From Candidatus Eiseniibacteriota bacterium (lineage in GTDB: Bacteria; Eisenbacteria; RBG-16-71-46; SZUA-252): DNA of 32,150 nucleotides. Location: positions 1 through 32,150 of the forward strand of contig JANOOP010000193.1 of the NCBI GenBank assembly GCA_031421415.1, read 5' to 3'. Below, piece after piece: positions 13,300 through 32,150 of this stretch. The position numbers and the translations under genes were made by a program. The number at the start of each line of letters is the position of its first letter. The first letter of the stretch is position 1. The notes under the pieces were generated by a model. It ran no database searches and was not told where the DNA came from. It was given only the letters and a program-made list of their open reading frames with translations.

Positions 13300-13321
13300 G
13301 GATGTCCCCGGAGACCCCTCC

Positions 13322-13804
13322 ATGACCGTGACCATGACCTCGCTGACGCCGATCAAGATCGGGGAGAAGGCACCCGACTTCACGTTGAAGGACCAGGTAG
13401 GCAACGCCGTGTCGCTCTCCTCGTTCCTGGGGAAGCAAAACGTCGTGCTCGTCTTCTATCCGCTCTCTTTCACCAGCGTCTGCGCGGTGCAGATGCCGGG
13501 GTACAGCAAGGAGCGGCAGCGATTCGAGGACCACGACGCCCAGGTGCTCGGCATCTCCGTCGACTCCTCGGCGGTCCACAAGGCGTTCGCGGAGAGCGTC
13601 GGGGTCGAGTTTCCGCTGCTGGCGGACTTCTATCCGCACGGAGCCGTCGCCATGGCGTACGGCGTCTTCCGGGAGGAGGGCTTCGCGGAGCGTTCGACCT
13701 TCGTCATCGACAAGCGGGGCATCGTCCGCTACGCGGAGCTCCACGAATTCGGCCGGGTGCCCGATCGCGCCAAGACGATCGAGGCGCTGAGCGGCCTCGA
13801 CTGA
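13322..13804 (+). CDS. Peroxiredoxin, AhpE-like (AhpC/TSA family), 160 aa
   Basis: KAPDFTLKD...VVLVFYPLSFTSVC peroxidatic Cys context. Confidence 0.85.
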   Translation: MTVTMTSLTPIKIGEKAPDFTLKDQVGNAVSLSSFLGKQNVVLVFYPLSFTSVCAVQMPGYSKERQRFEDHDAQVLGISVDSSAVHKAFAESVGVEFPLLADFYPHGAVAMAYGVFREEGFAERSTFVIDKRGIVRYAELHEFGRVPDRAKTIEALSGLD

Positions 13805-15677: not shown

Positions 15678-17121
15678 CGTGCGCCGCACCAAGATCGTCG
15701 CCACGCTCGGGCCCGCATCGGCCACGCCCGCCGTCCTCGCGCGAATGATCCGCGCGGGGCTCGACGTGGCGCGGCTCAATTTTTCCCACGGCACCGGTCG
15801 CGATCACACGCGCGCCTTCCGCCTCGTCCGCTCCGTCTCCGCGCGCGCCGGCAAAAACGTCGGCATCCTCCTCGACCTCCAGGGCCCCCGCATCCGGGTC
15901 GGCGAGCTCGAGGGCGGCTCGGTCAAGGTGGCGAACGGCGTGGAAATCCTCCTTACGAGCCACCGGGGACTGGGCGACGCGACGCACATTCCCATCTCCT
16001 ATCCCGACCTCCTTCGCGACGTGCGGAACGGAGACCGGGTGCTGATCGACGACGGCCTGGTGGAGTTGAAGGTGACCGCGCGCGTCCGCGGAGGACTCCG
16101 TGCGCGTGTCGTTCGCGGCGGCGTCATCTCGGACCACAAGGGAGTCAATTTCCCCGGCGTGCGGCTCGGCGTGCCAGCCCTGACGGCGAAGGATCGAAAC
16201 GATCTGAAGCTGGGGCTCGACCTGGGCGTCGACTACGTGGCGCTCTCGTTCGTGCGCGGCCCCGACGACATCGTGGGGCTCCGCCGGCTCATGCGGGGGG
16301 TGAAGCACCAGCCGCTCGTGATCGCGAAGATCGAGCGGCGCGAGGCGATCGAGAACCTCGAGGCGATCCTGGACGTCGCCGACGGCGTCATGGTGGCGCG
16401 CGGCGACCTGGGCGTGGAGTACCCCACGGAGCGGGTGCCGATTCTCCAGAAGCGGATCATCGATCGCGCGAACCGTCGCGAGGTGCTGGTCATCACCGCG
16501 ACGCAGATGCTCGAATCCATGGTCCATGCCAGCCGCCCCACGCGGGCCGAGGCCTCGGACGTGGCCAACGCCATCTTCGACGGCACCGACGCGGTCATGC
16601 TGAGCGCCGAGACGGCGGTCGGGCGCTATCCCGACGCGGCCGTCGCGACGATGGCCAGGATCGCGTCGGAAGCCGACGAATTCTCCGCCACGACGAGAGT
16701 GCCGCGCCGTTCCGACGGCTCCACGCTCGCGTCCCCGACCCACGCGCTGGCGCACACGGCCTACCAGGCGGCCCGGGAGATCCGGGCACGCTCGCTGGTC
16801 GTCTTCACCCACACCGGCTACTCCGCGCGGCTGGTCAGCAAGTCGAGGCCGGCGCAGACCATCCTCGCCCTCTGCCCGCTCCGCTCCACCTGCCGCAGGC
16901 TCTCCCTGGCCTGGGGGGTGGTGCCGATCCAGGTGCCGATGTGGAGGACGGCGGGCGGAATGGTGGAGGCCGGCCTCCGGATCCTGATCCGGATGAAGGT
17001 CCTCCGGACGGGCGACTGGGTGGTGGCCATGGCCGGGACCACGACTCGCTCGGGCGGCACGAATTTGCTCCGCATCCTGCAACAGGGGCGTCCTCCTGAC
17101 CGCCCTCCCGGAGCACGTTGA
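15649..17121 (+). CDS. pyk: Pyruvate kinase, 490 aa
   Basis: RRTKIVATLGPAS, ARLNFSHG, MVARGDLGVE, ITATQMLESM and a C-terminal regulatory domain. ATG 15649 overlaps bcp by 29 nt. In-frame GTG 15679 is an alternative start. Confidence 0.9.
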   Translation: MRFSPRFPSSVRRTKIVATLGPASATPAVLARMIRAGLDVARLNFSHGTGRDHTRAFRLVRSVSARAGKNVGILLDLQGPRIRVGELEGGSVKVANGVEILLTSHRGLGDATHIPISYPDLLRDVRNGDRVLIDDGLVELKVTARVRGGLRARVVRGGVISDHKGVNFPGVRLGVPALTAKDRNDLKLGLDLGVDYVALSFVRGPDDIVGLRRLMRGVKHQPLVIAKIERREAIENLEAILDVADGVMVARGDLGVEYPTERVPILQKRIIDRANRREVLVITATQMLESMVHASRPTRAEASDVANAIFDGTDAVMLSAETAVGRYPDAAVATMARIASEADEFSATTRVPRRSDGSTLASPTHALAHTAYQAAREIRARSLVVFTHTGYSARLVSKSRPAQTILALCPLRSTCRRLSLAWGVVPIQVPMWRTAGGMVEAGLRILIRMKVLRTGDWVVAMAGTTTRSGGTNLLRILQQGRPPDRPPGAR

Positions 17122-17147
17122 CAGGCGACCGGACATTCCGGTAAACT
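17118..17147 (+). promoter_or_regulatory. Candidate sigma70-type promoter for the A-type Fe-S carrier gene
   Basis: TTGACA (17118-17123, overlapping the pyk stop), 18-nt spacer, TAAACT (17142-17147). Leaves a leader of about 120 nt before ATG 17272. Confidence 0.5.
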
Positions 17148-17271
17148 TAACGATAGATAAGGACGCATCTTCGGGGCTCGGCCCGCATCTGAACCCGTTG
17201 GGCACGCAGTTTGCACCCCATCGAGGCGGAGCCCGAGAGGGACATAGGTAGAATCGGAGGATTCCAAGGTC

Positions 17272-17709
17272 ATGGTCACCCTGAGCGAAAAGGCTGCTTC
17301 GGAACTCAAGTCCATCATGGATCAGAACGGAGGCACGTTCGTAGGCGTCCGCGTCTTCGTTGCCGGCGGTGGCTGCTCCGGTCTTCAGTACGGGATGCAA
17401 ATCGCCGACGAGCCGCCCACGGCCGAAGATCTCGTCTTCGATCACGACGGCGTGAAGGTCATCGTGGATAACCAGAGCCATCAGCACCTCGAAGGTGCGT
17501 CGATCGACTTCGACGACTCCCTGCAGGGCGGCGGCTTCAAGATCAACAATCCGAACGCGGTCAAGTCGTGCGGCTGCGGCAATTCCTTCTCCAGCGGTGA
17601 GGAGGAAGGCGCGCAGGGCGGAGGCTGCGGCAGCGGCGGTGGCGGCAGCAGCGGCGGTGGCAACGGCGGTGGCGGAGGCGGCGGTGGTTGCGGCTGCGGA
17701 GGCCTCTAG
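17272..17709 (+). CDS. A-type iron-sulfur cluster carrier (IscA/ErpA/HesB family) with a 39-aa Gly/Cys-rich C-terminal tail, 145 aa
   Basis: Conserved Cys triad: C35 (GGGCSG) and C100/C102 (CGCGNSF). RBS GGAGGA upstream. Tail residues 107-145 are SSGEEEGAQGGGCGSGGGGSSGGGNGGGGGGGGCGCGGL. Confidence 0.85.
   Translation: MVTLSEKAASELKSIMDQNGGTFVGVRVFVAGGGCSGLQYGMQIADEPPTAEDLVFDHDGVKVIVDNQSHQHLEGASIDFDDSLQGGGFKINNPNAVKSCGCGNSFSSGEEEGAQGGGCGSGGGGSSGGGNGGGGGGGGCGCGGL
17610..17706 (+). repeat. (GGN)n simple-sequence tract encoding the Gly/Cys tail
   Basis: Read directly: a run of ggc/ggt/gga/agc/tgc codons. Confidence 0.7.
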
Positions 17710-17737
17710 GCCCCTGGCTATTGGATCGGTAGACTCG

Positions 17738-17773
17738 ACCGGCGCTCCGGAAACGGGGCGCCGGTTTTCATTT
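17738..17773 (+). terminator. Rho-independent terminator after the Fe-S carrier gene
   Basis: 12-bp stem ACCGGCGCTCCG / CGGGGCGCCGGT with one G-U pair, GAAA tetraloop (17750-17753), followed by TTTCATTT. Confidence 0.8.
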
Positions 17774-17817
17774 GGTGCGCCCGGCGGGCCGCCGCGCGCC
17801 GGGCGCCGCGGGAGCGA

Positions 17818-18135
17818 ATGGGGAGGGACATGGCGGAATTCCACAAGGTGGCGAGAACGGACGACGTCGTCGAAGGGAAGGGGACGATCGTCAGCGTGAA
17901 CGAGTTGAAGATCGCCCTCTTCCGATGCGACGGCGCGGTCTACGCCATCCGGAACCAGTGTCCCCACATGGGAGGCAATCTGGGAGAGGGCTCGCTGACC
18001 GGCGAGGTCGTCCGCTGTCCGGATCACGGCTGGCCCATCAACGTGAAGACCGGGCAGCATCCACAGGCGCCGGTGGTCGCGGTGCGCACCTTCCCCGTGA
18101 AGGAAGAAGGAGGCGAGGTCTATGTCGAGGTCTGA
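17818..18135 (+). CDS. Small Rieske [2Fe-2S] protein (NirD-like), 105 aa
   Basis: Rieske ligands CPHMGG ... CPDHGW. Alternative start at ATG 17830 (MAEFHKV), preceded by GGAGGG. Confidence 0.8.
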   Translation: MGRDMAEFHKVARTDDVVEGKGTIVSVNELKIALFRCDGAVYAIRNQCPHMGGNLGEGSLTGEVVRCPDHGWPINVKTGQHPQAPVVAVRTFPVKEEGGEVYVEV

Positions 18136-19450
18136 GGCGGGAGAGGCGGGCCCGGTGGCGGCGGCGCGCACGAGGGGAAGCGATCCATTTCACGCGGATG
18201 CGGCGCGCCTTCGTTTCGCGGCCCTTCGAGCGGCGGGCGCCCCGGTCTTCTTCGACAACGCCGCGGGGGCGCAGGCGCCCGACGAGGTCGTCGCGGCCGT
18301 CCGCGAGCACCTGGAGCGGCGAAACGTGCAGCGTGGCGGCCGCTACGACCGCTCCCGCGCCGTCGACGCCATGATCCTCGCGACGCGCCGCCGGCTGGCG
18401 GCGTTCCTGAACGCGGCCGGGCCCGAGGAAATCTTCTTCGGACAGAACTCGACCTCCGTGATGCGGACCGTGGCCGAGGCCATTCGCCCGACATTGAAGC
18501 CAGGCGACCGGGTCGTCGTCACCGAGCTCGATCACGAGGCGAACGTCGGCCCGTGGCTGAGGCTGGAGCGAAGCGGCGTGGAGCCGCGCTGGTGGAAGAC
18601 GCGCGGTGGCGCCGAGGCGCGCCTGGAGCTGGACGATCTGGCCGCGATCCTCCGCGAGGGGCGCGTGCGAATCGTGGCCCTCCCGCTCGCGTCGAACACG
18701 AGCGGAAGGCTGGTCGACGTCGCCGCCGCCGCCCGGCTGGCGCGCGAGCATGGAGCCTGGACGTTCGTGGACGCCGTCCACTACGGGCCGCACGGACCGA
18801 TCGACGTCCAGGCGCTCGGCGCCGATTTCCTCGCCTTCTCCGGCTACAAGATCTTCGGCCCCCACATGGGATTCCTATGGGGACGGCGCGAGCTGTTGAA
18901 CGCGCTCGAGCCGGCGCGGGAGCACTTCATTCCAGCCACGACGCCCTACGCCTACGAGGCGGGGACGCAGAACTTCGAGGGAATGGCGGGCCTGTCGGCG
19001 GCGATGCACTACCTTGCCACCGCGGAGGAGTCGGCCGTGCCGGCGCTCCCCGACCTCGAAACTTGCAACGAGAAGGAAGCCGCGGCGCTCGGCGCGTCCC
19101 TCGGCCGCACGATGGCGCGGATCCGTGCCTACGAGATGGTTCTCGCCGCGCGGCTGCTGGAAGCGGTGCTCGAGGTCCCGGGCGTCTCGATCCTGGGCGA
19201 TGCCGATCCGTCGCGAGTCGACGCTCGCGTTCCCACCGTCTCCTTCGCGGTGGCGGGGAAGACGCCCGCCACCATCGTCGATCGCCTCGCCGCCCACGGC
19301 ATTCACGCTCGCGAGGGGCACATGTACGCGCCCCGTCTCCTGCGCGCCGCCGGATTCGACCCCGATGCCGGCGTGGCGCGCGTGAGCCTCTGCCACTACA
19401 ACACCGTCTCGGAGATCGAGCGGTTCGCCCAGGCGATTCGCGTCCTCTAG
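18122..19450 (+). CDS. Class V PLP aminotransferase, cysteine-desulfurase-like (SufS/CsdA relatives), 442 aa
   Basis: FFDNAAGAQAP, ELDHEANV, PLASNTSG, FVDAVHYGPH, PLP lysine context FSGYKIFGP, C-terminal RVSLCHYNTVSEIERF. ATG 18122 overlaps the Rieske gene by 14 nt. Confidence 0.8.
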   Translation: MSRSEAGEAGPVAAARTRGSDPFHADAARLRFAALRAAGAPVFFDNAAGAQAPDEVVAAVREHLERRNVQRGGRYDRSRAVDAMILATRRRLAAFLNAAGPEEIFFGQNSTSVMRTVAEAIRPTLKPGDRVVVTELDHEANVGPWLRLERSGVEPRWWKTRGGAEARLELDDLAAILREGRVRIVALPLASNTSGRLVDVAAAARLAREHGAWTFVDAVHYGPHGPIDVQALGADFLAFSGYKIFGPHMGFLWGRRELLNALEPAREHFIPATTPYAYEAGTQNFEGMAGLSAAMHYLATAEESAVPALPDLETCNEKEAAALGASLGRTMARIRAYEMVLAARLLEAVLEVPGVSILGDADPSRVDARVPTVSFAVAGKTPATIVDRLAAHGIHAREGHMYAPRLLRAAGFDPDAGVARVSLCHYNTVSEIERFAQAIRVL

Positions 19451-19451
19451 C

Positions 19452-21500
19452 ATGGGCACGGCCTCTTTCCTGCAGGACCTCGTCATCACGCTGACGGCGG
19501 CACTGCTCGTGCTCCTGCCCAGCCGCCGGCTGCGCCTGCCGTCGGCGGTCGGGTTCATGCTCACGGGGATCCTGATCGGCCCCGGCGGATTCCGGCTGGT
19601 GAGCGATCCGCATCACGTCGAAATCCTGGCCGACATCGGCGTCGCGGTGCTCCTCTTCATGATCGGCCTGGAGTTCTCTCTGGCCCGGCTGAAGGAGATT
19701 TGGCGAGCCTTCCTCCTGGCCGGCCCGCTCCAAGTCGTGGGGACCATCGCGGCCATCGCCGCGCTCCTCCTGGCGCTGCCGGTCGGCGCGACGCTCCCGA
19801 AGGCGGTCTTCGCCGGCATGCTCATCGCGCTCTCCTCCACGGCCATGATTCTCCGCCTCCTCGCCGAGCGCGGAGAGACGCACGCGCCGCAGGGACGGCT
19901 CCTCCTGGGGATCCTCCTCTTCCAGGACGTGGCCATCGTGCCGATGCTCATCGCGACGCCAATCTTAGCGGGGACGAGCCGGCTGGCGTTGGGGCCGGGG
20001 CTCCTCCTGGGCGTGGCCGCGATCGTCGCCCTCTTCCTCCTCGCGCGCTACGGCATGCCGCGGCTGGTGAACGCGGTGATCCGGAGCGGCGTGCGGGAGC
20101 TCTACGTGATGATGGCGGTCGCGATCTGCCTGGGCGCCTCGCTCATCACGGGCGCGCTCGGACTTTCGCCGGCGCTCGGCGCCTTCCTGGGCGGACTGCT
20201 TGTCAGCGAGTCGGAATACTCGCACCAGATCGTCGCGGAGATCCTTCCGTTCCGCGACCTCTTCAGCAGCGTCTTCTTCATCTCGATCGGGATGCTCCTC
20301 GTCCCGGCTGCGCTTCTGTCGATGGCGGGTCCGGTTGGCGGCTGGCTCGTCCTCTCCATGGCCGTGAAGGCCGTGGTCGCGGGGGGAATCGTCCGGCTCC
20401 TCGGCTTTCCGCTCCGGATCGCCGTGGTCGTGGGAATCTCCCTGGCGCAGGTGGGAGAGTTCTCGTTCGTCCTCGCGCGGATCGGGCTGGACCAGGGGCT
20501 CCTCTCCGCGGCGCAGAGCCAGCAGTTCATCGCCGTCGCGGTCATCTCGCTCATCCTGACGCCGTTTCTCTTGAGCGGAGCGGCCTGGGCAGGCGCGCAC
20601 ACGGGAACGCACGTTCATCTCCCTCCCGCGGGGGTCTCCGCGGAGGGGCGCATCTCCGGCGCGGCGATTCCGGCGATCGATGCGGGTGCCGCCACGTCGG
20701 CGGCGGCGAAGGGGGCGGGCGCGGAGCCGCCGCTGCGCGACCACGTCATCGTCGCCGGCTACGGCGTGAACGGCAGGAACGTCGCCCGCGTCCTGCGCGA
20801 GGTCGGCGTACCCTACGTCGTCCTCGAACTTGACACCGCCATCATCCGCCGCGCGCGGGAAGCCGGGGAGAGAGTCCACTTCGGCGACGTCTCGCGTCCG
20901 GAGGGGCTCCGCGACTGCGGTCTCGATCGCGCGTCGGTGGTGGTTTTGGCCATCTCCGATCCGGCGGCCACGCGGTTCGCCGTACACCAGGCCCGCCAGA
21001 GCAACCCCCGCGTCTACATCATCGCGCGCACGCGGCTCGTCGCGGAGGTGAAGGAACTTTACCGGCTCGGCGCGGACGAGGTGATCCCCGAGGAATTCGA
21101 GACCTCGATCGCGATCCTGGCGCGCGTGCTCCGGCGCTTCCACGTTCCCGCGAACGTCGTCCGGCTCCAAGAGCAGGCACTGCGGCAGGAGGGGTACTCG
21201 TTCTTACGCGGAGGCGACATCACGGGGTCGCTCATGACGTCGGTCACGCGGATGATCGCCGGCGCCACGACCGATACCTACTATCTGGATCCCGGATCGC
21301 CGGCGGTGGGGAAGACCCTCGCGGAACTCGATCTTCGCGGCCGGACGCGGGCCCTTGTCATCGCCGTGGTGCGGGACGGCAAGCACACGCTCGGTCCCGA
21401 GGCCGACTTTGTCTTTCAGGCGGGAGACATTCTCGTCCTGGTGGGGGACCACCAGTCGCTCGACGCGGCGTACGGCGTGCTGGGGGGAGTGGGCGCCTAG
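19452..21500 (+). CDS. Kef-type monovalent cation:proton antiporter (CPA2) with RCK/TrkA-N and TrkA-C domains, 682 aa
   Basis: About 12 TM segments in an Na_H exchanger-like body. Rossmann HVIVAGYGVNGRNVARVL, then a TrkA-C-like end (ELDLRGRTRALVIAVVRDG...GDILVLVG). Starts 1 nt after the upstream stop. Confidence 0.85.
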   Translation: MGTASFLQDLVITLTAALLVLLPSRRLRLPSAVGFMLTGILIGPGGFRLVSDPHHVEILADIGVAVLLFMIGLEFSLARLKEIWRAFLLAGPLQVVGTIAAIAALLLALPVGATLPKAVFAGMLIALSSTAMILRLLAERGETHAPQGRLLLGILLFQDVAIVPMLIATPILAGTSRLALGPGLLLGVAAIVALFLLARYGMPRLVNAVIRSGVRELYVMMAVAICLGASLITGALGLSPALGAFLGGLLVSESEYSHQIVAEILPFRDLFSSVFFISIGMLLVPAALLSMAGPVGGWLVLSMAVKAVVAGGIVRLLGFPLRIAVVVGISLAQVGEFSFVLARIGLDQGLLSAAQSQQFIAVAVISLILTPFLLSGAAWAGAHTGTHVHLPPAGVSAEGRISGAAIPAIDAGAATSAAAKGAGAEPPLRDHVIVAGYGVNGRNVARVLREVGVPYVVLELDTAIIRRAREAGERVHFGDVSRPEGLRDCGLDRASVVVLAISDPAATRFAVHQARQSNPRVYIIARTRLVAEVKELYRLGADEVIPEEFETSIAILARVLRRFHVPANVVRLQEQALRQEGYSFLRGGDITGSLMTSVTRMIAGATTDTYYLDPGSPAVGKTLAELDLRGRTRALVIAVVRDGKHTLGPEADFVFQAGDILVLVGDHQSLDAAYGVLGGVGA

Positions 21501-23683
21501 GAAGGCGCCGCGCTCGCCGGCGCGGCTTCCGCCTCGGCGACGACGGCGGCCACGGTGGAGGGCCGCCGGCCATACGTCCAGGTCGCCCAGACGACGAACG
21601 CCAGGACCGCGATGCTCTCGAGGAGATAGCGCATGTCGAAGTAGTAGGTCGAGAACTCGATGACGTGGCTGAACGACGCCAGGAGCAGGAGCCCGATCGG
21701 AATGTCGTCGCGCTTCTCCCACAGGAAGGCCGCCACCGTCAGGAACGAGAAGTAGTAGCAGGTCAGCTCCATGCTTACCGCGATCACGCCGAAGCCGAAC
21801 GCCGCCAGGACCCACCACTCCATCTCGCGCCGCACCCCCCAGCAAAGGAGCGCCAGGTAGGCGGCGACCAGCACCAGGAAGAGGGGCTGTCCGAACGCGC
21901 CGCGGAAGGTGTTCTTGCGCGCCTCCCGGAAATTATGGAACGGATCGGCCGAGCGGGGGTCGTAGGTCGCCTTCTGGCGCGTCTCCCACCGGAATCCGAC
22001 CACGGTGCGAAGGCCCATGTAGTTTGTCAGCGGCGAGCCGGCATGCTTCTTCGTGTTCTTGAGGAATTCCGGCCAGGCCGAAGCGCCCCCGGCCACCATG
22101 CTCGATGCCGGGAGGAGAAGGGCGGTGGCCAGCGCGGCGCCGACGACGATGCTGGCGCCGGTGCGGTCGATGCGGCGCTCGCGGAAGAGAATCCACGCGA
22201 GCCTCAGGCCGATGACGACGAAAAAGCCGACCGGAAAGACGCGAAGAAGCGTCGAGACGGCCAGGCTTGCCCCGCCAAGGGCCGGCTTGCCGCGCTTGAG
22301 AAGGCAGATGCCGGCCACGGCCCAGAGGAACCAGTCCTGCCTGAGGTAGCCGCCCCCCGTCCAGAAGTAGAGCGCCGGTTCGTTGGTCCCGAAGAAGAGG
22401 GCGGCCACGCACGCCACGCGCCAGCCGAAGGCCCAGACGATGAGGCCGAAGGTGATCAGCAGGAGCGCGGGGTCGATCCAGCCGAGGAAGCCGACGATGA
22501 GCGAATCGGAGGCCGGCCCCAGATTCGCGAGGAGCGACCCGGCCATGTTCCAGACGGGCGAAGGATTGTAGCCGTGATCCTGCAGCATCTTCTCCCAACC
22601 GACGATGCCCGCGCGGTCGCGGAAATACGCGATGTCGTGCTTGAAATCCTCCCAGCGCTGGGGCGTGAACGGACGGAGGAAGCCGCGCTTGAAGCGCTCC
22701 GGGTCCTCCAGGACATACGTGGCCGGAACGATCTCGTTCTTTCTCAGGTCCCGAATCGTGCGCAACTCCACGCGTCGGCGGAATCCCTGCTCCGCCTCGG
22801 CCAGGTTGGCGCATTCGTAGAGGTGCGTGTAGCCGAGTTCCGGAAAGTATTTCGCGCCGATGAAGTAGTGGAAGAACTCGTGAACGTGGATGCGCTTCGG
22901 GAAGTGGTAGGCGCCCCCGTTGTAGTAGCCGAAGAAGCCGAGAAGTCCCAGCGTGAGGAGGAGTCCGTCGCGGAGCCGCCGGAAGCGCTCCGGCGCGCCG
23001 CGGCGCTTCAGGACGAGGCCCCACCACAAGAGAGCGGCCCCGAGGAACGCCAGCAGCGCCTTGAGGATGTTCGTGTCGTGGCGCGTGAGATGGTGCCAGG
23101 AGCGCGGCGAACTCGGAGGGGGCGGCGCCTCCGCGGCCACAACCGGCGGAGCGGGCCAGTCGATGGGAATTTCGCAGAACAGCTGCACCTCGGACAACGA
23201 GCGCGAACCGTTGCCCATCGCTTCGCCGAAGCGCACGAAGCGGCCATGGACGCCCGAGAAGAGCGTGGAACGGAGCTGCATGCCGCGGCCCTTCGCTCCC
23301 ACTTTCGGAACGGCCCAGATTTCCCGGAAGGCCGCGCCGTCGTCCGAGACCTGGAGCGAGAAGCCGTTCCAGGCATCGCCTTGAACCAGCGCGGCCGCGA
23401 TCGGCATGTCGGCGCCGAGATCGAAGGTGAGGGAGCCCGCGGCGGTCAGGAACCTCACGCCGCTCCCCGCGCGCCAGGTCGCTCCTTCGGCGACGCCGGC
23501 GCCGTCCACCGCCAGCCTCGGCGATCCCTCCACGTCGAGCGAATCGACGAGACGCGCCGTGGCCAGAAGATTGCCTGGAGGGCAGGCCGGGGTGGCGGGT
23601 TGCGCGAGGGAGGAGACCGCCGGGACCGAGGCGAGGAGCACGCCGAGGAGAACCGCGAGCGCCGTCCGCCGGAACAGGCTCAT
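21497..23683 (-). CDS. Polytopic membrane protein with an N-terminal secreted discoidin (F5/8 type C, galactose-binding-like) domain, 728 aa
   Basis: Signal peptide MSLFRRTALAVLLGVLLASVPAVSSLA. Cys-bracketed domain of about 150 aa (LAVDGAGVAEGATW, FSLQVSDDGAAFREIW, GRFVRFGEAMGNGSRSLSEVQLFC). More than 10 hydrophobic segments follow. Alternative GTG start at 23734 overlaps the upstream gene. Confidence 0.7.
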   Translation of the reverse strand: MSLFRRTALAVLLGVLLASVPAVSSLAQPATPACPPGNLLATARLVDSLDVEGSPRLAVDGAGVAEGATWRAGSGVRFLTAAGSLTFDLGADMPIAAALVQGDAWNGFSLQVSDDGAAFREIWAVPKVGAKGRGMQLRSTLFSGVHGRFVRFGEAMGNGSRSLSEVQLFCEIPIDWPAPPVVAAEAPPPPSSPRSWHHLTRHDTNILKALLAFLGAALLWWGLVLKRRGAPERFRRLRDGLLLTLGLLGFFGYYNGGAYHFPKRIHVHEFFHYFIGAKYFPELGYTHLYECANLAEAEQGFRRRVELRTIRDLRKNEIVPATYVLEDPERFKRGFLRPFTPQRWEDFKHDIAYFRDRAGIVGWEKMLQDHGYNPSPVWNMAGSLLANLGPASDSLIVGFLGWIDPALLLITFGLIVWAFGWRVACVAALFFGTNEPALYFWTGGGYLRQDWFLWAVAGICLLKRGKPALGGASLAVSTLLRVFPVGFFVVIGLRLAWILFRERRIDRTGASIVVGAALATALLLPASSMVAGGASAWPEFLKNTKKHAGSPLTNYMGLRTVVGFRWETRQKATYDPRSADPFHNFREARKNTFRGAFGQPLFLVLVAAYLALLCWGVRREMEWWVLAAFGFGVIAVSMELTCYYFSFLTVAAFLWEKRDDIPIGLLLLASFSHVIEFSTYYFDMRYLLESIAVLAFVVWATWTYGRRPSTVAAVVAEAEAAPASAAPS

Positions 23684-23726
23684 CGGGGGCCGCGCGATCG
23701 CGTGGGAACGCGACCGGCCGCGCGGA

Positions 23727-24344
23727 CTACGCACCCGGCAGGATCCCCATCCAGTCCCGCATCAGGAACTGCATGCGGGCGATGAGGAGCGAAACGCGCG
23801 CCATCACGGTGTAGCCGAACGACGCGCCGAAGGCGACCATGAGGAACCAGATTCCCGTGCGCGCGCTGAAGCCATGGAGCCCCTTGTGGGGCGCGGAGAA
23901 GAAGAAGTAGGCGAGAACGCTGAGGAAGCCGAGCAGAATCAGGCCGGAATTGACGGCGCCCCAGCCGGGCTGAAACGGTTTCACCGCGTCGGCCAGCTGC
24001 GCGAAGATCTGCGCTTGGAGATACGACGGTACGGCGATCCCCGAGTAGATTCCCACGTAGAACGCGAGCGACCAGCGCGCCAGACCCGAGGTGCGTTCCC
24101 AGGCCCGCCCGAGAATCAGGATCCCCAGCACGAGCGGGACGAAGGGGAGGAGTTCCCCGTGCCCGATCTTCTCGATCACGTTGGGCCGGAAGACGTTTTG
24201 GTACTGCACGGCAAGAAGGTAGCCGGCGGAGGCCCCGACGAAGAGGTGCTCCGCGAATCGGTAGAACGGATTGTCGCGGTAGAGGAACGAGAAGACGCAG
24301 AGCGTCAGGAGCGCCGCGACCCAGGTGCCGATATCGTGGCTCAC
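23727..24344 (-). CDS. Integral membrane protein of unknown family, about 6 TM, 205 aa (module B')
   Basis: Hydrophobic periodicity with coding-like GC3. GTG start overlaps the upstream stop (GTGA). Confidence 0.65.
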   Translation of the reverse strand: MSHDIGTWVAALLTLCVFSFLYRDNPFYRFAEHLFVGASAGYLLAVQYQNVFRPNVIEKIGHGELLPFVPLVLGILILGRAWERTSGLARWSLAFYVGIYSGIAVPSYLQAQIFAQLADAVKPFQPGWGAVNSGLILLGFLSVLAYFFFSAPHKGLHGFSARTGIWFLMVAFGASFGYTVMARVSLLIARMQFLMRDWMGILPGA

Positions 24345-25195
24345 GCGCCGCCCCCGATCCGGCGTCTCAGCCCGCCCGTCGCGAAGAGCGCCACGTTTCC
24401 GAGCAGAACAAGAATCACGACGATCACGTGGACGAGGCTCTGGGCGTCCATCCCCCGGCGTGCGTCCCCGATGATCCCCATGAGCCGTTCATATTCCGCC
24501 GCTCCCTTCATGCCGCCGATCAGTCCGAGGAGCTGGCGCGACGAGAGGTAGGGATAGTAGTCGGTCGCCATGACCGCGGTGGCGCCGAGGATCATCGGAC
24601 GGTGATAGCGGCTCGCGGCGATGCGAATGTAATAGTCGGCGATGGACGATCCGGAGAGGTTGATCAGGAGCGGAAAGTCGGCGTACGAGTTCACCCGTTG
24701 CATCAGGGGGATGGAGTCGGTGCGGACGCCATAGAAGTCGCGGGGGAAGAGTCCCCGGATGTTCTCTCCCAGCCCCAGAATGACCGCTTGGTTCCCCGAT
24801 TTGTACCCGAGGAAGACGTAGTCCTCGTACCGCTTTTTCCCCTCGGCGGCCGTAGCCACCGCGAGCGCCTGCTCGACCAGGCGCGGTCCCGCGGGATAGA
24901 GCGTCAGAATGACGGGTTTCAGATTCCGGCGGAAGCAGTGGCGGAGCACCGCGATCGACATCGGCTGAAGCTCGGCCATGATGTCGGGCTCGTAGTCGAT
25001 CGACATGAGGATGATCGATCCCTCCGGCACGGCTTCGATCGCGTCGTAGGCAGCCTGCACGCGCGGCGACGGTGTCACCGGAAGGTTCACCGGGAAGAGG
25101 AGCGGAAGCACGGTCCCCAGTCCGACCAGGACGAAGATCCAGCGGCGATCGATGCCGAGAATCCGCTGCCAGATGCCGTTCGGGGTCGCGGCCAC
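24341..25195 (-). CDS. Bitopic membrane protein of unknown family: N-terminal TM, about 220-aa globular domain, C-terminal TM, 284 aa (module A')
   Basis: TM1 RRWIFVLVGLGTVLPLLF and C-terminal TM LVHVIVVILVLLGNVALFATGG followed by RRRIGG. GTG start 3 nt after the upstream stop, with GGAGG 9 nt upstream. Confidence 0.65.
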   Translation of the reverse strand: MAATPNGIWQRILGIDRRWIFVLVGLGTVLPLLFPVNLPVTPSPRVQAAYDAIEAVPEGSIILMSIDYEPDIMAELQPMSIAVLRHCFRRNLKPVILTLYPAGPRLVEQALAVATAAEGKKRYEDYVFLGYKSGNQAVILGLGENIRGLFPRDFYGVRTDSIPLMQRVNSYADFPLLINLSGSSIADYYIRIAASRYHRPMILGATAVMATDYYPYLSSRQLLGLIGGMKGAAEYERLMGIIGDARRGMDAQSLVHVIVVILVLLGNVALFATGGLRRRIGGGA

Positions 25196-25198
25196 GGC

Positions 25199-25816
25199 TC
25201 AGGACCTCCCCAGGTAGGAGCGGTCGATGCCGAGAATGATCTTGAGCGCGGTGGAGATGGCGCCCAGTCCCACCCCGATCGCCACGGCGCGCTTGGCCGC
25301 GAGATTCGGCACGTCCAGAAGCCACTCGGTGAGGGGCGGAAAGCCCTTCCAGATGAACTCCCCGATGGAGACGCGCCCGACCATCATGACGATGGCGGTC
25401 AGGAGCAGGAGCGTCGCTTCGATGTTGCGCGCGCGAAAGGCGCGAAACGCGGCCGACGCGATGAAGAAGGCGAGGAGCGAGAACATGGTCGAGGCCAGCG
25501 GCGCGTTGACCGAGTCGTAGATTTTCCCGACGATCGTCTCCCCCCCGACCCCCTGCGTGACGCCGAGCACTGTGACGAGCGCCAGGGCCGTGAGCGTCAC
25601 CGCGCTGTAGGGCCACCCCTCGGCCCGCTGCTGGAGCTTCTTCTGGTGCGATATCCAGAGCGAGATCGATCCCAGGAGCAGCGCGAACGCATAGACGATG
25701 TCGGCCCACTCCAAGATCACCGACTGGGTCTGCTGGGCGGCGCGATTCGGGATGAAGAAGATGGCGATGAGCGTGGCGCCGGTCAGGAAGGTGACGACGA
25801 TGGGTCCGAGGCGCAT
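25199..25816 (-). CDS. Integral membrane protein of unknown family, about 6 TM, 205 aa (module B)
   Basis: ATG start 17 nt after the upstream stop. Six hydrophobic segments. Confidence 0.65.
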   Translation of the reverse strand: MRLGPIVVTFLTGATLIAIFFIPNRAAQQTQSVILEWADIVYAFALLLGSISLWISHQKKLQQRAEGWPYSAVTLTALALVTVLGVTQGVGGETIVGKIYDSVNAPLASTMFSLLAFFIASAAFRAFRARNIEATLLLLTAIVMMVGRVSIGEFIWKGFPPLTEWLLDVPNLAAKRAVAIGVGLGAISTALKIILGIDRSYLGRS

Positions 25817-25833
25817 GGGCCGCCGCTACGCTC

Positions 25834-26640
25834 TCACGAAGTCTGGAGGAGCCGGCCGAGCCACGGATGGCCGAGGGCCGAGAGGATGATCGCCAGGACG
25901 ACCGTGCCGGCGGCGAGCGCCTTGGCCCAGTCCTGCGCGGCGATGGTGGCGAGCTGGACCGGCTCCCGCCCCAGATAGGCGCTCGCCGCGTAGAGTTCTT
26001 CGCCGAGGAGCGTGTAGTCGCACGAGCAGACGAAGAAGGGAAGCTGCGTCACCTGATCGCACCCCGCGATCTGGATGGCGCCGGTGAGATTCCCCGTCTC
26101 CGCCAGGAAGAGCGACTCCGCATAGAAGGCGCCCATGAAGATGTTCGTGGCCGGGCGATCCCGCAGCATGGTTCCGGTCACGGAGGCGACGTAGGCGAAC
26201 TGCGTGGCGCTGACGTAATAGACGCTCCCGGGCCGGAACGAATCGGCGCGGTTCGCCTCGCGGTAGGCTTCGCGGGTGGTGCCTTCGATCAGCGCGGTCA
26301 CCACGGGGTCGTAGCAGGGAATGCGCAGATCGCAGCCGAGGTCGGCCACGCGGCGCGCCACCCGGCTCGAGATGGTGATCGCGGCCAGCGTCCCGACCTC
26401 GCTCATGTCGCCGATGCCGGGGACGAAGAGCACGGGGCGGCCCATCTCGGTCGCGCGGCCGATCGCTTCGTCGAGCGCCTTCAACCCCGCCAGCGGCCGG
26501 ATGAATAGCCCGTCGCGAGAGACCTTGGCACGGCGGATGTTGATCGCGAGGAAGGCGATGAACAGGAAGAGTCCAACGAGGAGGTTTAGACGGTCCGGAT
26601 TGAACCAGCGCGCGTCGAGCGTCTCGCCCATCGCGGCCAC
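25834..26640 (-). CDS. Bitopic membrane protein of unknown family: N-terminal TM, globular domain, C-terminal TM, 268 aa (module A)
   Basis: TM1 LNLLVGLFLFIAFLAINI and C-terminal TM ALAAGTVVLAIILSAL. GTG start 26640, with ATG 26631 as an alternative. Lies 24 nt after the TPR gene stop. Confidence 0.65.
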   Translation of the reverse strand: MAAMGETLDARWFNPDRLNLLVGLFLFIAFLAINIRRAKVSRDGLFIRPLAGLKALDEAIGRATEMGRPVLFVPGIGDMSEVGTLAAITISSRVARRVADLGCDLRIPCYDPVVTALIEGTTREAYREANRADSFRPGSVYYVSATQFAYVASVTGTMLRDRPATNIFMGAFYAESLFLAETGNLTGAIQIAGCDQVTQLPFFVCSCDYTLLGEELYAASAYLGREPVQLATIAAQDWAKALAAGTVVLAIILSALGHPWLGRLLQTS

Positions 26641-26664
26641 GCTAGCACGCGCGCGGGAGCAGGG

Positions 26665-28611
26665 TCAACGCCGCCCGGGCGCCGGCGCGGCCGGCTGGTC
26701 GATTTCCGTGAAGAATTCCGCGAGCTGCCTGGCGGCCGCCGGGTCCATTCGCTGGATCGTCGTCCGTTCCTGGGCCGCCCGCTCCCGGTCGCCCAATCGC
26801 AAATAGGCGAGCGCGAGGTTCATGCGCGCCTGAAGCGACGACGGCGCGAGTTCCACCGCCTTCGCATAGGCGTCGCGCGCCTCCTCCAGGCGCCCTTGGC
26901 CGCCGTGGATGGCGCCCAGATTGTTTAAGGCGCCGACATGCGTGGAGTCGATCGCGAGGGCCTTCTGGTAAGCCTCCATGGCCCCGGCGGCGTCCTGCGT
27001 CGCGGCCAGCGAGACGCCGTAGTTGTACCAGAGGAGGGCCTGGGTTCCATCGAGCTCGACGGCGCGGCGCGAGGCGACGATCGCCTCCGCGGCCTTCCCC
27101 TGCTGCGTCAGCGCGTCTCCCAGATTGGCCCACGCCTCGGCGTTCTCCGGAGTGAGCGACGTGGCTCGGCGGGCCGATGCCTCGGCCTCGGGCCATCTCC
27201 CCAGCGTTCCGAGGGCGAGCGCCCGGGTCGAGAAGGCGCCCGCGAGCGTCGAGTCGCGATCGATGGCGCGGTCGAGCGCCGCCAGCGCGGCCGCGGCGTC
27301 GCCCATGGCGGCGTGGTGGCCGGCCAGCTGGAGATAGGGCTCCGGATCGTGCGGGGAGGCTTCGGCCGAAGCCTGGAGGAGTGCGACGTCGTTCTCCCAG
27401 ACGGGGACGCGCCCCACGGTGGCATAGGCCGCGAGGCCGGCCAGCGCGAGCCCGATCGCCATCGCGGCGGCGCGGGCGCCTCGCGGCGGCTCCGCGAGCC
27501 ACCGGAGGAGCGAGGCGACCAGAAGGCAGATTCCCACCGACGGCAGGTAGGCGAGCCGCTCCGCGACGTAGGAGAGGCCGAGCGCCGGGAACGGGAGCGC
27601 AGGGGCGATTCCGAGAAGAACGACGAGCCCCCCGATGCGTGCCAGCGGATCGTGTCTCCGCCACCAGACGAACGCGGCCAGGAGGGCCGCGAGCGGGACC
27701 AGCGGGAGCCACGGAGCCGCCGTGGCCGCGGCGGCCGAGAGCGACCGGATCGCGTTCAAGGGATGCGGCCAGGCGAGCAACGCCAGATAGTCGCCCAGGG
27801 AATGAAGGACGGCGGCCCCCGCGTGTCCCGCGGGGAGTCCGCGCTCCGCGAGCGTGGCGCCCGGCGCCGCCGGCAGGAGGAAGCGAAGTGCGAGACTCGC
27901 GAGGCAGATCGCGAAGAATCCGGCGTAGTGAGTCCGCCGCGGGGTCATGGAAACGCGTGGTGAGCCCCAGCGATCGAGACCGATGAGGAGGAACGGCGTC
28001 ACGACGGCGGTGAAATCGGTGAAGGCCGCCACCGCGTAGAGTCCGTAGGCCCACCAGATCGCGCGCGAGCCGCCGCCCTCGGAGACGCGGACGGCTGGAA
28101 TGCGCGCCACGAGGAGCGCGGCCATGGAGAAGACCGCGGCCATCATCGCCGCTCGTCCCGAGACGAAGGCGACCGACTCGACGTGGACGGGGTGGGCGCC
28201 GAAGAGGAGCGCCGCGACGAATGCGATCCCCGCGGAGGCGCCGACGTGGACCGCCAGGTGGAAGAAGAGCCACGTTCCCGCGGCGTGGAGGATCAGGTTG
28301 GTGAAGTGGAAGAGCGCCGGTCCCCCCGCGCCGAGCATCCACTCGCCGCGCTGCAGGAGGCCCAGGAGCGGACGAAATCCTTCCGCGGCCGCGCTACCCG
28401 CCCCCCTCGTCGAGGCGAGAAGGGCGTCGTCCCAGACCCACCCATACTGGAGCGAGGGGAAGTAGAGGAGCCCCGCCACGAAGCCCGACAGGACGGCGAG
28501 TGCGTTGGGGCTCAGGTGGGGGAGCGCGAGCCACGGCTTTCCGGCTCGCGCGTCGGTCGCGTGACGACCCTGGCGCGATGTCCCCTTGGGGGCTTCCTTC
28601 CGATTCGGCAC
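26665..28611 (-). CDS. GT-C-like polytopic membrane protein with C-terminal TPR repeats (TMTC/PMT-like architecture), 648 aa
   Basis: First-loop acidic motif LQYGWVWDDALL after TM1, then about 10 further hydrophobic segments. The C-terminal ~250 aa contain repeated TPR-like units (AEAWANLGDALTQQGKAAEAIVASRRAVELD, ALLWYNYGVSLAATQDAAGAMEAYQKALAID, GALNNLGAIHGGQGRLEEARDAYAKAVELAP). The only in-frame start downstream of the divergent gene is GTG 28609-28611. Confidence 0.72.
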   Translation of the reverse strand: MPNRKEAPKGTSRQGRHATDARAGKPWLALPHLSPNALAVLSGFVAGLLYFPSLQYGWVWDDALLASTRGAGSAAAEGFRPLLGLLQRGEWMLGAGGPALFHFTNLILHAAGTWLFFHLAVHVGASAGIAFVAALLFGAHPVHVESVAFVSGRAAMMAAVFSMAALLVARIPAVRVSEGGGSRAIWWAYGLYAVAAFTDFTAVVTPFLLIGLDRWGSPRVSMTPRRTHYAGFFAICLASLALRFLLPAAPGATLAERGLPAGHAGAAVLHSLGDYLALLAWPHPLNAIRSLSAAAATAAPWLPLVPLAALLAAFVWWRRHDPLARIGGLVVLLGIAPALPFPALGLSYVAERLAYLPSVGICLLVASLLRWLAEPPRGARAAAMAIGLALAGLAAYATVGRVPVWENDVALLQASAEASPHDPEPYLQLAGHHAAMGDAAAALAALDRAIDRDSTLAGAFSTRALALGTLGRWPEAEASARRATSLTPENAEAWANLGDALTQQGKAAEAIVASRRAVELDGTQALLWYNYGVSLAATQDAAGAMEAYQKALAIDSTHVGALNNLGAIHGGQGRLEEARDAYAKAVELAPSSLQARMNLALAYLRLGDRERAAQERTTIQRMDPAAARQLAEFFTEIDQPAAPAPGRR

Positions 28612-28713
28612 GGCGGTAGAGTGCCCCTCACGGAGTCGCGTTGCAAGAGGGCCGTTCGGGACCGTCGTTCCGGCTCGCCCCGCGACCTCGCCTTCAAGGA
28701 TAGGAGGCCATGC

Positions 28714-30397: not shown

Positions 30398-32150
30398 TCA
30401 CGAACACCCGCTCGTGGTACCGCAGTTGAGACAGGCATAGCAGGCGCCCCGGCGGACCATGATCGATCCGCAGTCGGAGCAGGGAGGCGCATCGGTCTCG
30501 GAGACGAAGGCTCGGTCCTCCTCGGCCCTCGTCTTGGCGCCGCCGTTTCCGCCGTTCGCGCCGCCCCCGCCGTTGATGAGCGAGAGCTGCGTGTCGGCGA
30601 CCGGCTTCACGCCGCCCGCTTCGAAGATGTCGTCCTTCGCGGCCTCGTGCGAGGCCGACGCGGGGTGGTGGCCCAGGAACTTGATGCCGAGCCACCGGAA
30701 GATGTAGTCGACGATCGACTTCGCGATCGGAATGTCGCTGTTCTTCGTGAAGCCGTGCGGCTCGAACCGGACGTGGGCGAACTTGCTCACGAAGAGCTCC
30801 AGCGAAACCCCGTGCTGCAGCCCCAGCGAGACCGCCGTGGCGAAGGAGTCCATGACGCCCGATAGGGTCGAACCCGCCTTGGCCATCACGATGAAGATCT
30901 CGCCCGGCGTTCCGTCCTCGTACATCCCGACGGTCAGGTATCCGTCGTGGCTCCCCACCGAGAACTTGTGCGTGATCGACTTCCGCTCGTCCGGCAGCCG
31001 CCGGCGCTTCGGGACGGCCGGCGCCTGAACGACCTGAAGCGTCGGCCTCTGCGCACCCTTGTCGTCCTTGCTGGTCGAGAGCGGCTGGCTCCGCTTGGAG
31101 CCGTCGCGGTAGACCGCCACCGCCTTCAGTCCGCCCTTCCACGATTCCAGATAGGCGTGGGCAATGTCTTGTGGCGTGGCGTCCTCCGGCATGTTCACCG
31201 TCTTCGAGATGGCGCCGGAGATGAACGGCTGCACCGCCTCCATCATGCGGATGTGGCCGAGGTAGTGGATCGACCTCCTGCCGTTCCGCGGCTTGAAGGC
31301 GCAATCAAATACGGGGAGGTGCTCGTCCTTGAGCCCCGGTGCTCCTTCGATCGTCTCGTGCTCGTCGATGTAGCGCACGATCCGATTCACCGCTTCCTCC
31401 CCGTAGCCGAGACGACGCAGCGCCTCGGGCACCGTGTTGTTCACGATCTTGAGCATCCCGCCGCCCGAGAGCTTCTTGTACTTCACGAGCGCGATGTCGG
31501 GCTCGATGCCGGTCGTGTCGCAATCCATCATGAACGCGATCGTTCCGGTGGGGGCGATGACCGTCACCTGGGCGTTGCGGTAGCCGTGCTCGACACCGAG
31601 CGCCTCGCACTCGTTCCAGGTGGCGCGGGCGGCGTCCAGGATCTCGGTCGGGACGTGCGTGGCGTCGATCTTCTCGATGGCGGCGTGATGCTTGCGAATG
31701 ACCCGGAGCATCGGTTCGCGATTCTTCTCATAGCCGGCGAACGGCCCCTTGGCCGCGGCGATCCGGGCACTGGTGGCGTTGGCGTGGCCATGCATGAGCG
31801 CCGTCAGGGCTCCCGCCACCGAGCGGCCGGCGTCGCTGTCGTAGGGGATGCCCCACGACATGAGCAGCGCGCCGAGGTTGGCGTAGCCAAGGCCGAGCGG
31901 CCGGAAGTCGTGCGAATTCTTCTCGATCGTCGGGGTCGGATAGGAGGCGTTGTCGACCACGATTTCCTGCGCGGCGATGAGCGTGCCGCAGACGTGCTTG
32001 TAGGCGGCCGTGTCGAAGACGCCGTCCGCCCGGACGAACTTCATGAGATTGACCGAGGCGAGATTGCACGCCGAGTCGTCCAGGAACATGTATTCGGAGC
32101 AGTTGTGAACCACCAATCCATTCGCCACGAAGTGGTTGGTGACGGGCTCG
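30398..32150 (-). CDS. nrdJ: Class II (adenosylcobalamin-dependent) ribonucleotide reductase NrdJ, 3' part (5' end lies outside the window). C-extein is 30398..32101, preceded by an intein C-terminus
   Basis: CSEYMFLDDSACNLASVNL, TVIAPTGTIAFMMDCDTTGIEPD, ISKTVNMPEDAT and a C-terminal Cys-rich tail CSDCGSIMVRRGACYACLNCGTTSGCS. The reading frame stays open to the window edge (EPVTNHFVANGLVVHN|CSEY). Confidence 0.9.
   Translation of the reverse strand, partial: EPVTNHFVANGLVVHNCSEYMFLDDSACNLASVNLMKFVRADGVFDTAAYKHVCGTLIAAQEIVVDNASYPTPTIEKNSHDFRPLGLGYANLGALLMSWGIPYDSDAGRSVAGALTALMHGHANATSARIAAAKGPFAGYEKNREPMLRVIRKHHAAIEKIDATHVPTEILDAARATWNECEALGVEHGYRNAQVTVIAPTGTIAFMMDCDTTGIEPDIALVKYKKLSGGGMLKIVNNTVPEALRRLGYGEEAVNRIVRYIDEHETIEGAPGLKDEHLPVFDCAFKPRNGRRSIHYLGHIRMMEAVQPFISGAISKTVNMPEDATPQDIAHAYLESWKGGLKAVAVYRDGSKRSQPLSTSKDDKGAQRPTLQVVQAPAVPKRRRLPDERKSITHKFSVGSHDGYLTVGMYEDGTPGEIFIVMAKAGSTLSGVMDSFATAVSLGLQHGVSLELFVSKFAHVRFEPHGFTKNSDIPIAKSIVDYIFRWLGIKFLGHHPASASHEAAKDDIFEAGGVKPVADTQLSLINGGGGANGGNGGAKTRAEEDRAFVSETDAPPCSDCGSIMVRRGACYACLNCGTTSGCS
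32102..32150 (-). mobile_element. C-terminal 16 residues of an intein inserted in nrdJ (rest lies outside the window)
   Basis: Minus-strand translation EPVTNHFVANGLVVHN followed by Cys (TGC 32101-32099). This matches the intein C-terminal splicing block: NF/HF-V-A-N, a hydrophobic run, HN, then a +1 Cys. Confidence 0.7.

Follow-up and report, generated by a model that had tools for sequence, protein, structure and literature searches.

What do six consecutive genes encode when all of their products appear to be membrane proteins and the four in the middle were reported to match no recognisable family? This question is raised by a contig from the metagenome-assembled genome of a Candidatus Eiseniibacteriota bacterium (JANOOP010000193.1, assembly GCA_031421415.1), of which we analysed the full length, positions 1 to 32,150 (a stretch of 32,150 nucleotides (nt), referred to here as the window). 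An earlier note, based on the letters of this stretch, described six tightly coupled genes on its minus strand: a gene for a tetratricopeptide repeat (TPR) protein, four smaller genes termed A, B, A' and B', and a gene for a protein with a discoidin domain. Our analysis provides good support for a conserved unit that consists of the four genes A-B-A'-B' rather than all six. We refer to this unit as the cassette, and it probably encodes an undescribed membrane complex.

Six genes in the window

All six open reading frames (ORFs) and the junctions between them were confirmed by reading the sequence and by comparison with public gene calls. On the minus strand these are the TPR gene (26665-28611, 648 aa), A (25834-26640 in a 268-aa form), B (25199-25816, 205 aa), A' (24341-25195, 284 aa), B' (23727-24344, 205 aa) and the discoidin-like gene (21497-23683, 728 aa, or 21497-23734 if an alternative GTG start is used). 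Exact look-ups in the public annotation of the same contig returned proteins of these lengths (728 aa in the discoidin-like case) for every gene except A. It is the start of A that needs to be revised. The protein collection contains a 265-aa form of A, which begins at ATG 26631, three codons later than the 268-aa form given in the earlier note, which is absent from the collection. Since this ATG is also the position of the start in all A homologues, a length of 265 aa is more likely, and the gap between the TPR gene and A is therefore more likely to be 33 nt than the 24 nt that is read from the sequence with the longer form. The remaining junctions are a gap of 17 nt between A and B, a gap of 3 nt between B and A', an overlap of the A' stop with the B' start (GTGA), and a gap of 43 nt between B' and the discoidin-like gene. 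As had been stated in the earlier note, no ATPase, soluble enzyme or regulator was found inside the six-gene block in Pfam and NCBIfam scans. The window has a GC content of 61-74% (roughly 68% overall) and long ORFs are common on both of its strands, so that the six genes are validated by their homologues in related loci rather than by ORF length. Amongst these, one related contig is 99% identical over gene A.

The conserved unit is a four-gene cassette

Relatives of A were identified in a one-genome-per-species scan, which yielded at least 595 loci. The best 80 of these were retained and, together with two further loci, make up a mapping set of 82. Where at least 2.6 kb of sequence was available downstream of A, the full set of B, A' and B' followed in this order in 99 out of 108 A copies, with median gaps of about 28, 6 and 9 nt. 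Of the nine exceptions, four look like split matches and the rest are lone A paralogues. Cassettes were found in Eisenbacteria, Zixibacteria, Ignavibacteria, Fermentibacteria (including Aegiribacteria and Sabulitectum) and Latescibacteria, together with WOR-3, TA06, GN15, Coatesbacteria and Poribacteria. As judged from the best 80 of at least 595 loci, the cassette thus ranges over at least nine candidate or recognised phyla, most of them in the Fibrobacteres-Chlorobi-Bacteroidetes (FCB) group. All carriers that we found are known solely from metagenomes, with no cultured organism amongst them.

The two outer genes of the block have a much narrower distribution. The TPR gene accompanies the cassette in about 8 of 16 loci of the Eisenbacteria-type clade (9 if a fragmentary match in L001 is included), the discoidin-like gene was found in three related loci and the window, out of 82 loci, and neither of the two was found outside this clade. 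Clustering of all other ORFs in the loci revealed no further universally linked gene. In addition, when six further contigs were annotated with Pfam, the flanks were seen to differ between lineages, with examples that include a cytochrome oxidase operon, a pyruvate phosphate dikinase, a lipid acyltransferase, an OmpA-like gene and a WecG transferase. The earlier note had proposed a test of whether gene order is conserved across related genomes. It is conserved for the four core genes, which do form a tightly coupled unit made entirely of membrane proteins, but not for the six-gene neighbourhood, whose flanks recur only in some Eisenbacteria. It is therefore well supported that the conserved unit is A-B-A'-B' and that this cassette is autonomous, with flanks that vary by lineage; the TPR and discoidin-like genes are lineage-specific accessories found in part of the Eisenbacteria.

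In many loci of Ignavibacteria and Zixibacteria the cassette is repeated, with two or three complete copies arranged head to tail in tandem (L027, L028, L032, L048, L050, L052, L054, L056, L065, L076 and L087). At L087:2742-13480 this results in a run of twelve tightly coupled or overlapping genes. The clades formed by A paralogues follow cassette position, and in all 52 of the 52 cassettes in multi-cassette loci the nearest foreign relatives of the four genes fall in the same paralogue clade. The pairwise distances of the four families also correlate (r 0.52-0.73), as shared phylogeny alone would lead one to expect. Taken together, the fixed gene order, the tandem arrangement of whole cassettes and the agreement between clades constitute strong evidence that A-B-A'-B' is inherited as one functional unit, and suggest that its products form one complex.

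Gene A encodes a DUF6754 protein with a Rossmann-like domain

While the four core genes had been described as matching no family, A proved to be a full-length member of the Pfam family DUF6754 (PF20539; E 9.1e-99, 330.2 bits against a cut-off of 27, covering profile positions 3-252 of 257). Pfam assigns no function to this family, the Pfam entry as viewed does not include a linkage to three further unnamed families, and no paper mentioning DUF6754 or PF20539 was found in the literature searched. The A family comprises 2056 clusters at 50% identity (E<=0.001, in a set of 1.84 billion representatives) and well over 5000 members in a collection clustered at 90%. A proteins from Eisenbacteria are 48-56% identical to those of other phyla, and an alignment of 48 sequences contains more than 40 invariant columns.

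Family-averaged hydropathy indicates one helix at each end of A, with a non-hydrophobic domain of about 200 residues between them. A structural model was generated using AlphaFold2 with 96 diverse sequences (pLDDT 93.5, pTM 0.86); with 17 close homologues the prediction was poor (pLDDT 53). In the model, a long helix (residues 15-40) leads into a domain (51-224) in which six parallel strands alternate with helices in a Rossmann-like manner, and a second long helix (227-255) follows. The invariant residues G75, Q147, G170, E175, G193, Q199, D208 and G213-E214-E215 are located just after strands or at the starts of helices, and R48, R62, R160 and K240 lie near this cluster in the sequence. These secondary-structure positions suggest that the cluster sits at the usual ligand site of Rossmann domains. 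The classical GxGxxG...D fingerprint is not conserved, as only G75 is invariant and D111 is replaced in paralogous cassettes.

A Foldseek search with the predicted structure, as had been proposed in the earlier note, revealed no close structural relative of A, there being no match in PDB or BFVD at E<=0.001. The best matches were to generic Rossmann-like proteins (E >= 0.007; TM-scores of at most 0.35 on the query and 0.51 on the target; 6-16% identity), and included a molybdenum-cofactor carrier protein (target TM 0.5), an RCK domain, SIS-domain proteins and LabA/NYN. In the case of the RCK domain of MthK, the match had an E value of 0.087, a probability of 0.99 and a root-mean-square deviation of 5.0. 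The molybdenum-cofactor carrier/LOG (SLOG), RCK/KTN, SIS and LabA/NYN domains resemble A in having a three-layer alpha/beta/alpha arrangement with a parallel sheet, whereas none of them is clamped between two membrane helices.

Outside Eisenbacteria, A possesses an N-terminal extension that begins with a typical signal peptide and includes a fibronectin type III (FN3)-like module, some 100 residues long and marked by the signature D-x-P-N-D-x-G. Some of these extensions carry the NCBI label fibronectin type III, with one weak Pfam fn3 match, and some contain repeats that by eye resemble carbohydrate-binding modules (CBMs), or HEAT repeats. The length of the extension varies from 0 to more than 1000 aa across the family, and the Eisenbacteria proteins have none. 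Since the secreted N terminus is followed by one helix, the conserved domain of A is placed on the cytoplasmic side, between the two membrane helices. The charge bias, which places the domain inside and the tails outside, agrees with this, and we regard the orientation of A, read in this way from its sequences, as established. Secreted extensions of 600-1070 aa without a Pfam match, some of them with CBM-like or HEAT repeats, were found in the DUF6754 proteins P0140 (1276 aa), P0136, P0133 and P0128 (1341 aa).

B, A' and B' define three further families

B and B' are both proteins of 205 aa for which family-averaged hydropathy indicates about six membrane helices. B contains the invariant motif S-T-M-F-S-L-L-A-F-F-I-A-S-A-A-x-R-A-F-R-A-R and is predicted to have both of its termini on the inner side (N-in, C-in). 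The last helix of B' is glycine-rich and includes the invariant stretch F-G-A-S-F-G-Y-T-V-M-x-R; the orientation of this protein is uncertain. A' is made up of a helix, a non-hydrophobic domain of alpha/beta type of about 215 aa, and a second helix with conserved Q, H and N residues. Because the short tails of A' are its more positive parts, the positive-inside rule predicts a periplasmic location for this domain. Across the alignments identity is 40-50% for B, 42-51% for B' and 35-49% for A'. The identity range of the four families is that of core cellular machinery, and is not typical of transport or sensor proteins.

For B, A' and B', the lack of a recognisable family was borne out. No match to any of the three was found in Pfam or NCBIfam, and searches of PDB sequences returned nothing, even when profiles of 48-49 sequences were used; for all four core families, sequence and profile searches against PDB gave nothing below E 1. 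A Pfam scan at E<=1 with 48-49 diverse members per family for B, A' and B' produced scattered and inconsistent noise; the TMD0_ABC model was matched by 16 of 48 B members, with a best E of 5.7e-4 that falls short of the threshold. Similarly, the four core proteins had no match at E<=0.01 in PADLOC, which covers anti-phage defence, and neither did the discoidin-like protein or the membrane domain at the N terminus of the TPR protein. No internal repeats (3+3) were found in B or B', and no invariant acidic residue lies in the helix core of B, A' or B', where the invariant charged residues are located at helix ends. It is thus well supported by these comparisons that, beyond the DUF label and a generic Rossmann-like fold, the core proteins have no detectable characterised relative.

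The names A/A' and B/B' would suggest two duplicated pairs. This reading was rejected, as BLASTP comparisons gave E values of 51 for A with A' and 18 for B with B', and hhalign comparisons of profiles built from 85-109 sequences gave probabilities of 1.5% and 0.3%. When the soluble domains were compared alone the probability was 0.2%, and half-proteins were also unrelated. By these sequence comparisons, A, A', B and B' represent four distinct families, which have in common only their size and gross layout. A and A' probably have opposite orientations in the membrane, as may B and B'.

A putative inner-membrane complex

How might these four proteins work together? In the reading that we favour, to which we give somewhat less than an even chance, the cassette is an autonomous operon that encodes one hetero-oligomeric inner-membrane complex handling a hydrophilic substrate. 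The two unrelated six-helix proteins, B and B', would form the membrane core of this complex. A would hold its Rossmann-like domain at the cytoplasmic face by means of two anchoring helices and, in most lineages though not in this one, would add a secreted FN3-like or carbohydrate-binding-like extension, while A' would contribute an alpha/beta-type domain on the periplasmic face. The complex would bind the hydrophilic substrate, and would then move it across the inner membrane or process it there, with a putative site for binding or catalysis on the cytoplasmic side, made up of the invariant residues, both acidic and basic, that are found along the C-terminal edge of A's beta-sheet. Our favoured guess for the substrate is a molecule of envelope or glycan type, and the complex could, at low confidence, be a translocase for such a molecule. 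In the Eisenbacteria lineage, a TMTC-like TPR protein and the discoidin-like polytopic protein would have been added to the operon. The proposal that a substrate is handled draws on the combination of two polytopic subunits with one alpha/beta domain per membrane face, the conserved charged cytoplasmic pocket, the variable secreted modules of binding type, and the presence of paralogous sets within genomes. The CBM-like repeats in A, the discoidin-like and TMTC-like neighbours, and the WecG/TagA gene near one cassette point weakly to a glycan.

A number of observations weigh against this reading. The assembly of the four proteins into one complex is inferred from the behaviour of their genes, and lone paralogues of A without B, A' and B' exist, so that A may also act alone. 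Since the Foldseek matches of A are generic (E >= 0.007), its ligand cannot be named, and the hints of a glycan come from neighbours that are variable and lineage-specific. B and B' lack the internal repeats, and the helices the buried invariant acidic residue, that would be a transporter signature. No energising ATPase is generally linked to the cassette; of 89 loci, 3 have an ABC ATPase in their flanks, and in just 1 of these is it encoded on the strand of the cassette. Upstream of cassettes in the window and 14 loci, the search for riboswitches returned tRNAs only, and no regulator that might reveal a ligand was seen in cassette neighbourhoods.

The same parts could also make up a ligand-regulated channel or a trans-membrane signalling device, in which A, acting like an RCK/KTN or SLOG domain, would sense a small molecule in the cytoplasm, the extensions of A and the A' domain would sense the outside, and B and B' would act as a gated pore or relay. 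This idea gains from the presence of the SLOG-type molybdenum-cofactor carrier (target TM 0.5) and MthK RCK amongst the best Foldseek matches, from the variability of A's extracytoplasmic extensions and from the lack of a linked ATPase. We nevertheless consider it unlikely, given that the structural matches have E values of at least 0.007 and that A has no conserved GxGxxG...D fingerprint, that no output domain or regulator is present in any neighbourhood, and that conservation is far above what is usual for sensors.

Accessory genes of the Eisenbacteria lineage

The TPR protein starts with a basic N terminus, and its first hydrophobic segment (residues 36-52) is followed by a WVWDD motif at 58-62. 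Some 10-11 hydrophobic segments in all were counted up to residue 400 in a simple hydropathy scan, and TPR repeats occupy residues 405-630 (Pfam, E 2e-25). W58, W60 and D62 are invariant in 7 orthologues, one of which has N in place of D61. The protein also contains an LLFxAHPxHxE motif, in which AHPxHxE is invariant in the 7 orthologues. In humans, the TMTC O-mannosyltransferases have a cytoplasmic N terminus, 11 helices and lumenal TPRs, with a strictly conserved DD motif in the loop after the first transmembrane helix (TM1); TMTC3 includes the segment LLFAVHPIHT, and all human TMTCs match DUF1736 at E<1e-30 (PMC7801869). The TPR protein resembles enzymes of the TMTC/PMT-type GT-C class in its predicted cytoplasmic N terminus, the DD of its first outer loop, an early helix with LLFxxHPxH and C-terminal TPRs, and the hydropathy scan suggests about 10-11 helices. 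It differs from them in that no GT-C, DUF1736 or PMT/ArnT-type match was found in Pfam or NCBIfam at E<=1 for this protein and six orthologues, and in that a phmmer search of PDB sequences gave nothing relevant. The TMTC-like resemblance in architecture and motifs is real. Of the earlier description of the gene, the WVWDD motif after the first segment and the TPRs stand, while the GT-C assignment was confirmed by no hidden Markov model.

The discoidin-like protein is composed of a signal peptide, a beta-sandwich-like segment, a proline-rich linker and a polytopic membrane part without a match. Its F5_F8_type_C match (E 0.0026, 18.3 bits) lies below the cut-off of 28.2, as do the matches of three orthologues below theirs (E 3.7e-5 to 0.16), and the similarity to a CBM32 chain is weak (E 0.45). 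The discoidin domain proposed in the earlier note is thus seen weakly in all four orthologues, and reaches the Pfam threshold in none.

These data bear on the earlier proposal that the six genes together encode an envelope glycoconjugate or protein-glycosylation machine, in which the four small proteins form the membrane core. Short junctions join all six genes, the TPR protein shares a DD after TM1 and HPxHxE with TMTC O-mannosyltransferases (PMC7801869), weak F5/8-C matches are seen in all orthologues of the discoidin-like gene, and some A proteins have CBM-like repeats. Nonetheless, while the core is found throughout, only about half of the Eisenbacteria-type loci include the TPR gene, just 3 of the 82 loci have the discoidin-like gene, and neither was seen outside that clade; in addition, no GT-C/DUF1736 Pfam match was obtained for the seven TPR orthologues and the discoidin matches are sub-threshold, which makes this account of the system a rather improbable one. 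A glycosylation machine of six genes is better seen as a possible lineage-specific elaboration than as the definition of the system, and a role in glycoconjugate assembly would be compatible with the data. The block in the window also shares features with the synthase-dependent exopolysaccharide systems Bcs, Pga, Alg and Pel, namely a partner with TPRs, a beta-sandwich that resembles carbohydrate-binding ones, alpha/beta domains that are anchored in the membrane and predicted to face the periplasm, and a domain with a nucleotide-type fold in the cytoplasm. It differs from these systems in having no GT-2 synthase or PilZ domain, in that no sequence match, and for A no fold match, was found, and in that its TPR and lectin-like genes are lineage-specific.

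Comparison with envelope motors and ABC modules

An ion-driven trans-envelope motor or tether similar to Tol-Pal, Ton or GldLM, whose reach towards the wall or the outer membrane would be provided by the extension of A, would be in keeping with the length of that periplasmic extension (0 to more than 1000 aa), the OmpA-like gene that adjoins one cassette, the FCB-centred distribution and the paralogous sets in the same genome. We judge this very unlikely, as MotA_ExbB was matched by only 1 of 49 B' members (E 0.061), no membrane-buried Asp or Glu is invariant, and A has no extension at all in Eisenbacteria.

The GldF/GldG-type ABC-2 modules of Bacteroidota, which belong to the ATP-binding cassette (ABC) systems, are like the cassette in that they pair a six-helix subunit of about 200 aa with a subunit of the form helix-periplasmic domain-helix, and in their FCB-centred distribution. 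The cassette differs in showing no sequence relation to them at E<=1 amongst the matches listed, in having no linked ATPase, and in having an extra cytoplasmic Rossmann-like subunit. That B and B' are permeases and A' an auxiliary subunit of GldG type, served by an ATPase from another locus, can all but be dismissed. In its favour, sizes and topologies are reminiscent of GldF/GldG, a LolD/FtsE-type ATPase is encoded immediately upstream in one locus (L089), and 16 of 48 B members show weak sub-threshold ABC TMD0 matches. However, the relatives that the earlier note had named as a refuting case did not appear, there being no ABC-2 or ABC_transp_aux amongst the matches listed at E<=1; these lists came from about 145 members and, for B and B', covered the 25 families that were matched by most members. 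ATPases are as rare in the flanks as described above, and A has no counterpart in such systems. In terms of sequence and structure, we see no positive support for any of the channel or sensor, ion-driven and ABC-type explanations.

Neighbouring genes and other features of the window

Lone extra copies of A were seen in L022, L029:14205-, L030, L033, L034:14986-, L036:7626-9698 and L075:9105-. In Fermentibacteria and Sabulitectum the lone A is directly upstream of two GNAT acetyltransferase genes, and a family-1 glycosyltransferase gene and a DUF2400 gene are often found near lone copies. In L085:2994-13803, two DUF6754 genes with long extensions flank an OmpA-like gene, and the second of the two is followed by three uncharacterised proteins of 449-493 aa in place of B, A' and B'.

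In several phyla, a GlmL/MutL-family actin-fold protein (PF13941, E 1.6e-131) and a 375-aa protein without a family are encoded just upstream of cassettes or between them (L028:623-3686, L076:57-3125, L060, L017:4641-7594, L020:3883-7613 and L063:5870-6994), with more distant copies in L030, L036, L070 and L071. This pair was rejected as a general partner and is absent from L087 and the window. A pyruvate phosphate dikinase gene is found downstream of the last cassette in 17 Ignavibacteria/Zixibacteria loci (L024, L026, L027, L032, L046, L048, L050, L052, L054, L056, L057, L064, L065, L067, L069, L078 and L079) and in L087, usually with a gene for a small and highly basic protein (about 115 aa) ahead of it. 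This neighbourhood probably reflects plain synteny and not a functional link. In a single case out of 89 loci (L089:199-6373), genes for a WecG/TagA-family glycosyltransferase and a LolD/FtsE-type ABC ATPase are located directly upstream of the cassette on the same strand.

In the window, 102 nt (28612-28713) separate the start of the TPR gene from that of a divergent membrane-protein gene on the plus strand (start 28714). This would be the likely promoter region of the block; a scan that was run without Bacteroidota-type promoters found no sigma-70-type consensus in it. A simple scan likewise revealed no convincing internal terminator in the block (7 weak sites, against 3.3 +/- 2.1 expected). 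At its other end, the block is convergent with a Kef-type gene (19452-21500, plus strand), the stop codons of this gene and the discoidin-like gene overlapping by 4 nt. The Kef-type gene encodes an Na+/H+-exchanger (K+/H+ antiporter) with TrkA domains, as identified with Pfam in syntenic loci, and it also comes after the cassette in L001 and L002, without an intervening discoidin-like gene.

A ribonucleotide reductase gene lies on the minus strand at 30398-32128, and the window ends inside it. The syntenic ribonucleotide reductase at L001:2407-6354 contains an intein with a LAGLIDADG endonuclease (Pfam Intein_splicing, LAGLIDADG_3). Also on the minus strand, at 5309-8064, are adjacent ORFs for a VWA-domain protein (367 aa) and an AAA_5 ATPase (537 aa), which form a MoxR/VWA-like pair, with a squalene/phytoene synthase (2620-3888) and an HhH-GPD glycosylase (163-1773) encoded nearby. 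Three further minus-strand ORFs of 645, 467 and 861 aa (10015-11952, 12001-13404 and 15586-18171) have no Pfam or NCBIfam match and, at such GC content, may or may not be real genes.

Implications for the FCB group

We regard it as nearly an even bet that the cassette represents a new class of inner-membrane machine, built of four subunits and inherited from the ancestors of much of the FCB group and neighbouring lineages, with no subunit from a characterised superfamily beyond a generic Rossmann-like fold and with a conserved envelope or transport function that would have been missed so far because no carrier found is cultured. The cassette is very likely to be important to its hosts, since it is widespread, has thousands of homologues, shows about 50% identity between phyla and has been duplicated as a whole. 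The only name attached to any part of this module is one DUF entry, and no paper on it was found in the literature searched. The present work provides the limits of the unit (four genes), its likely topology, a confident model of A and a set of invariant residues. If the cassette does encode a new translocase or envelope machine, it would bring a new component into FCB-group cell biology, and many thousands of genes now labelled hypothetical would gain an annotation.

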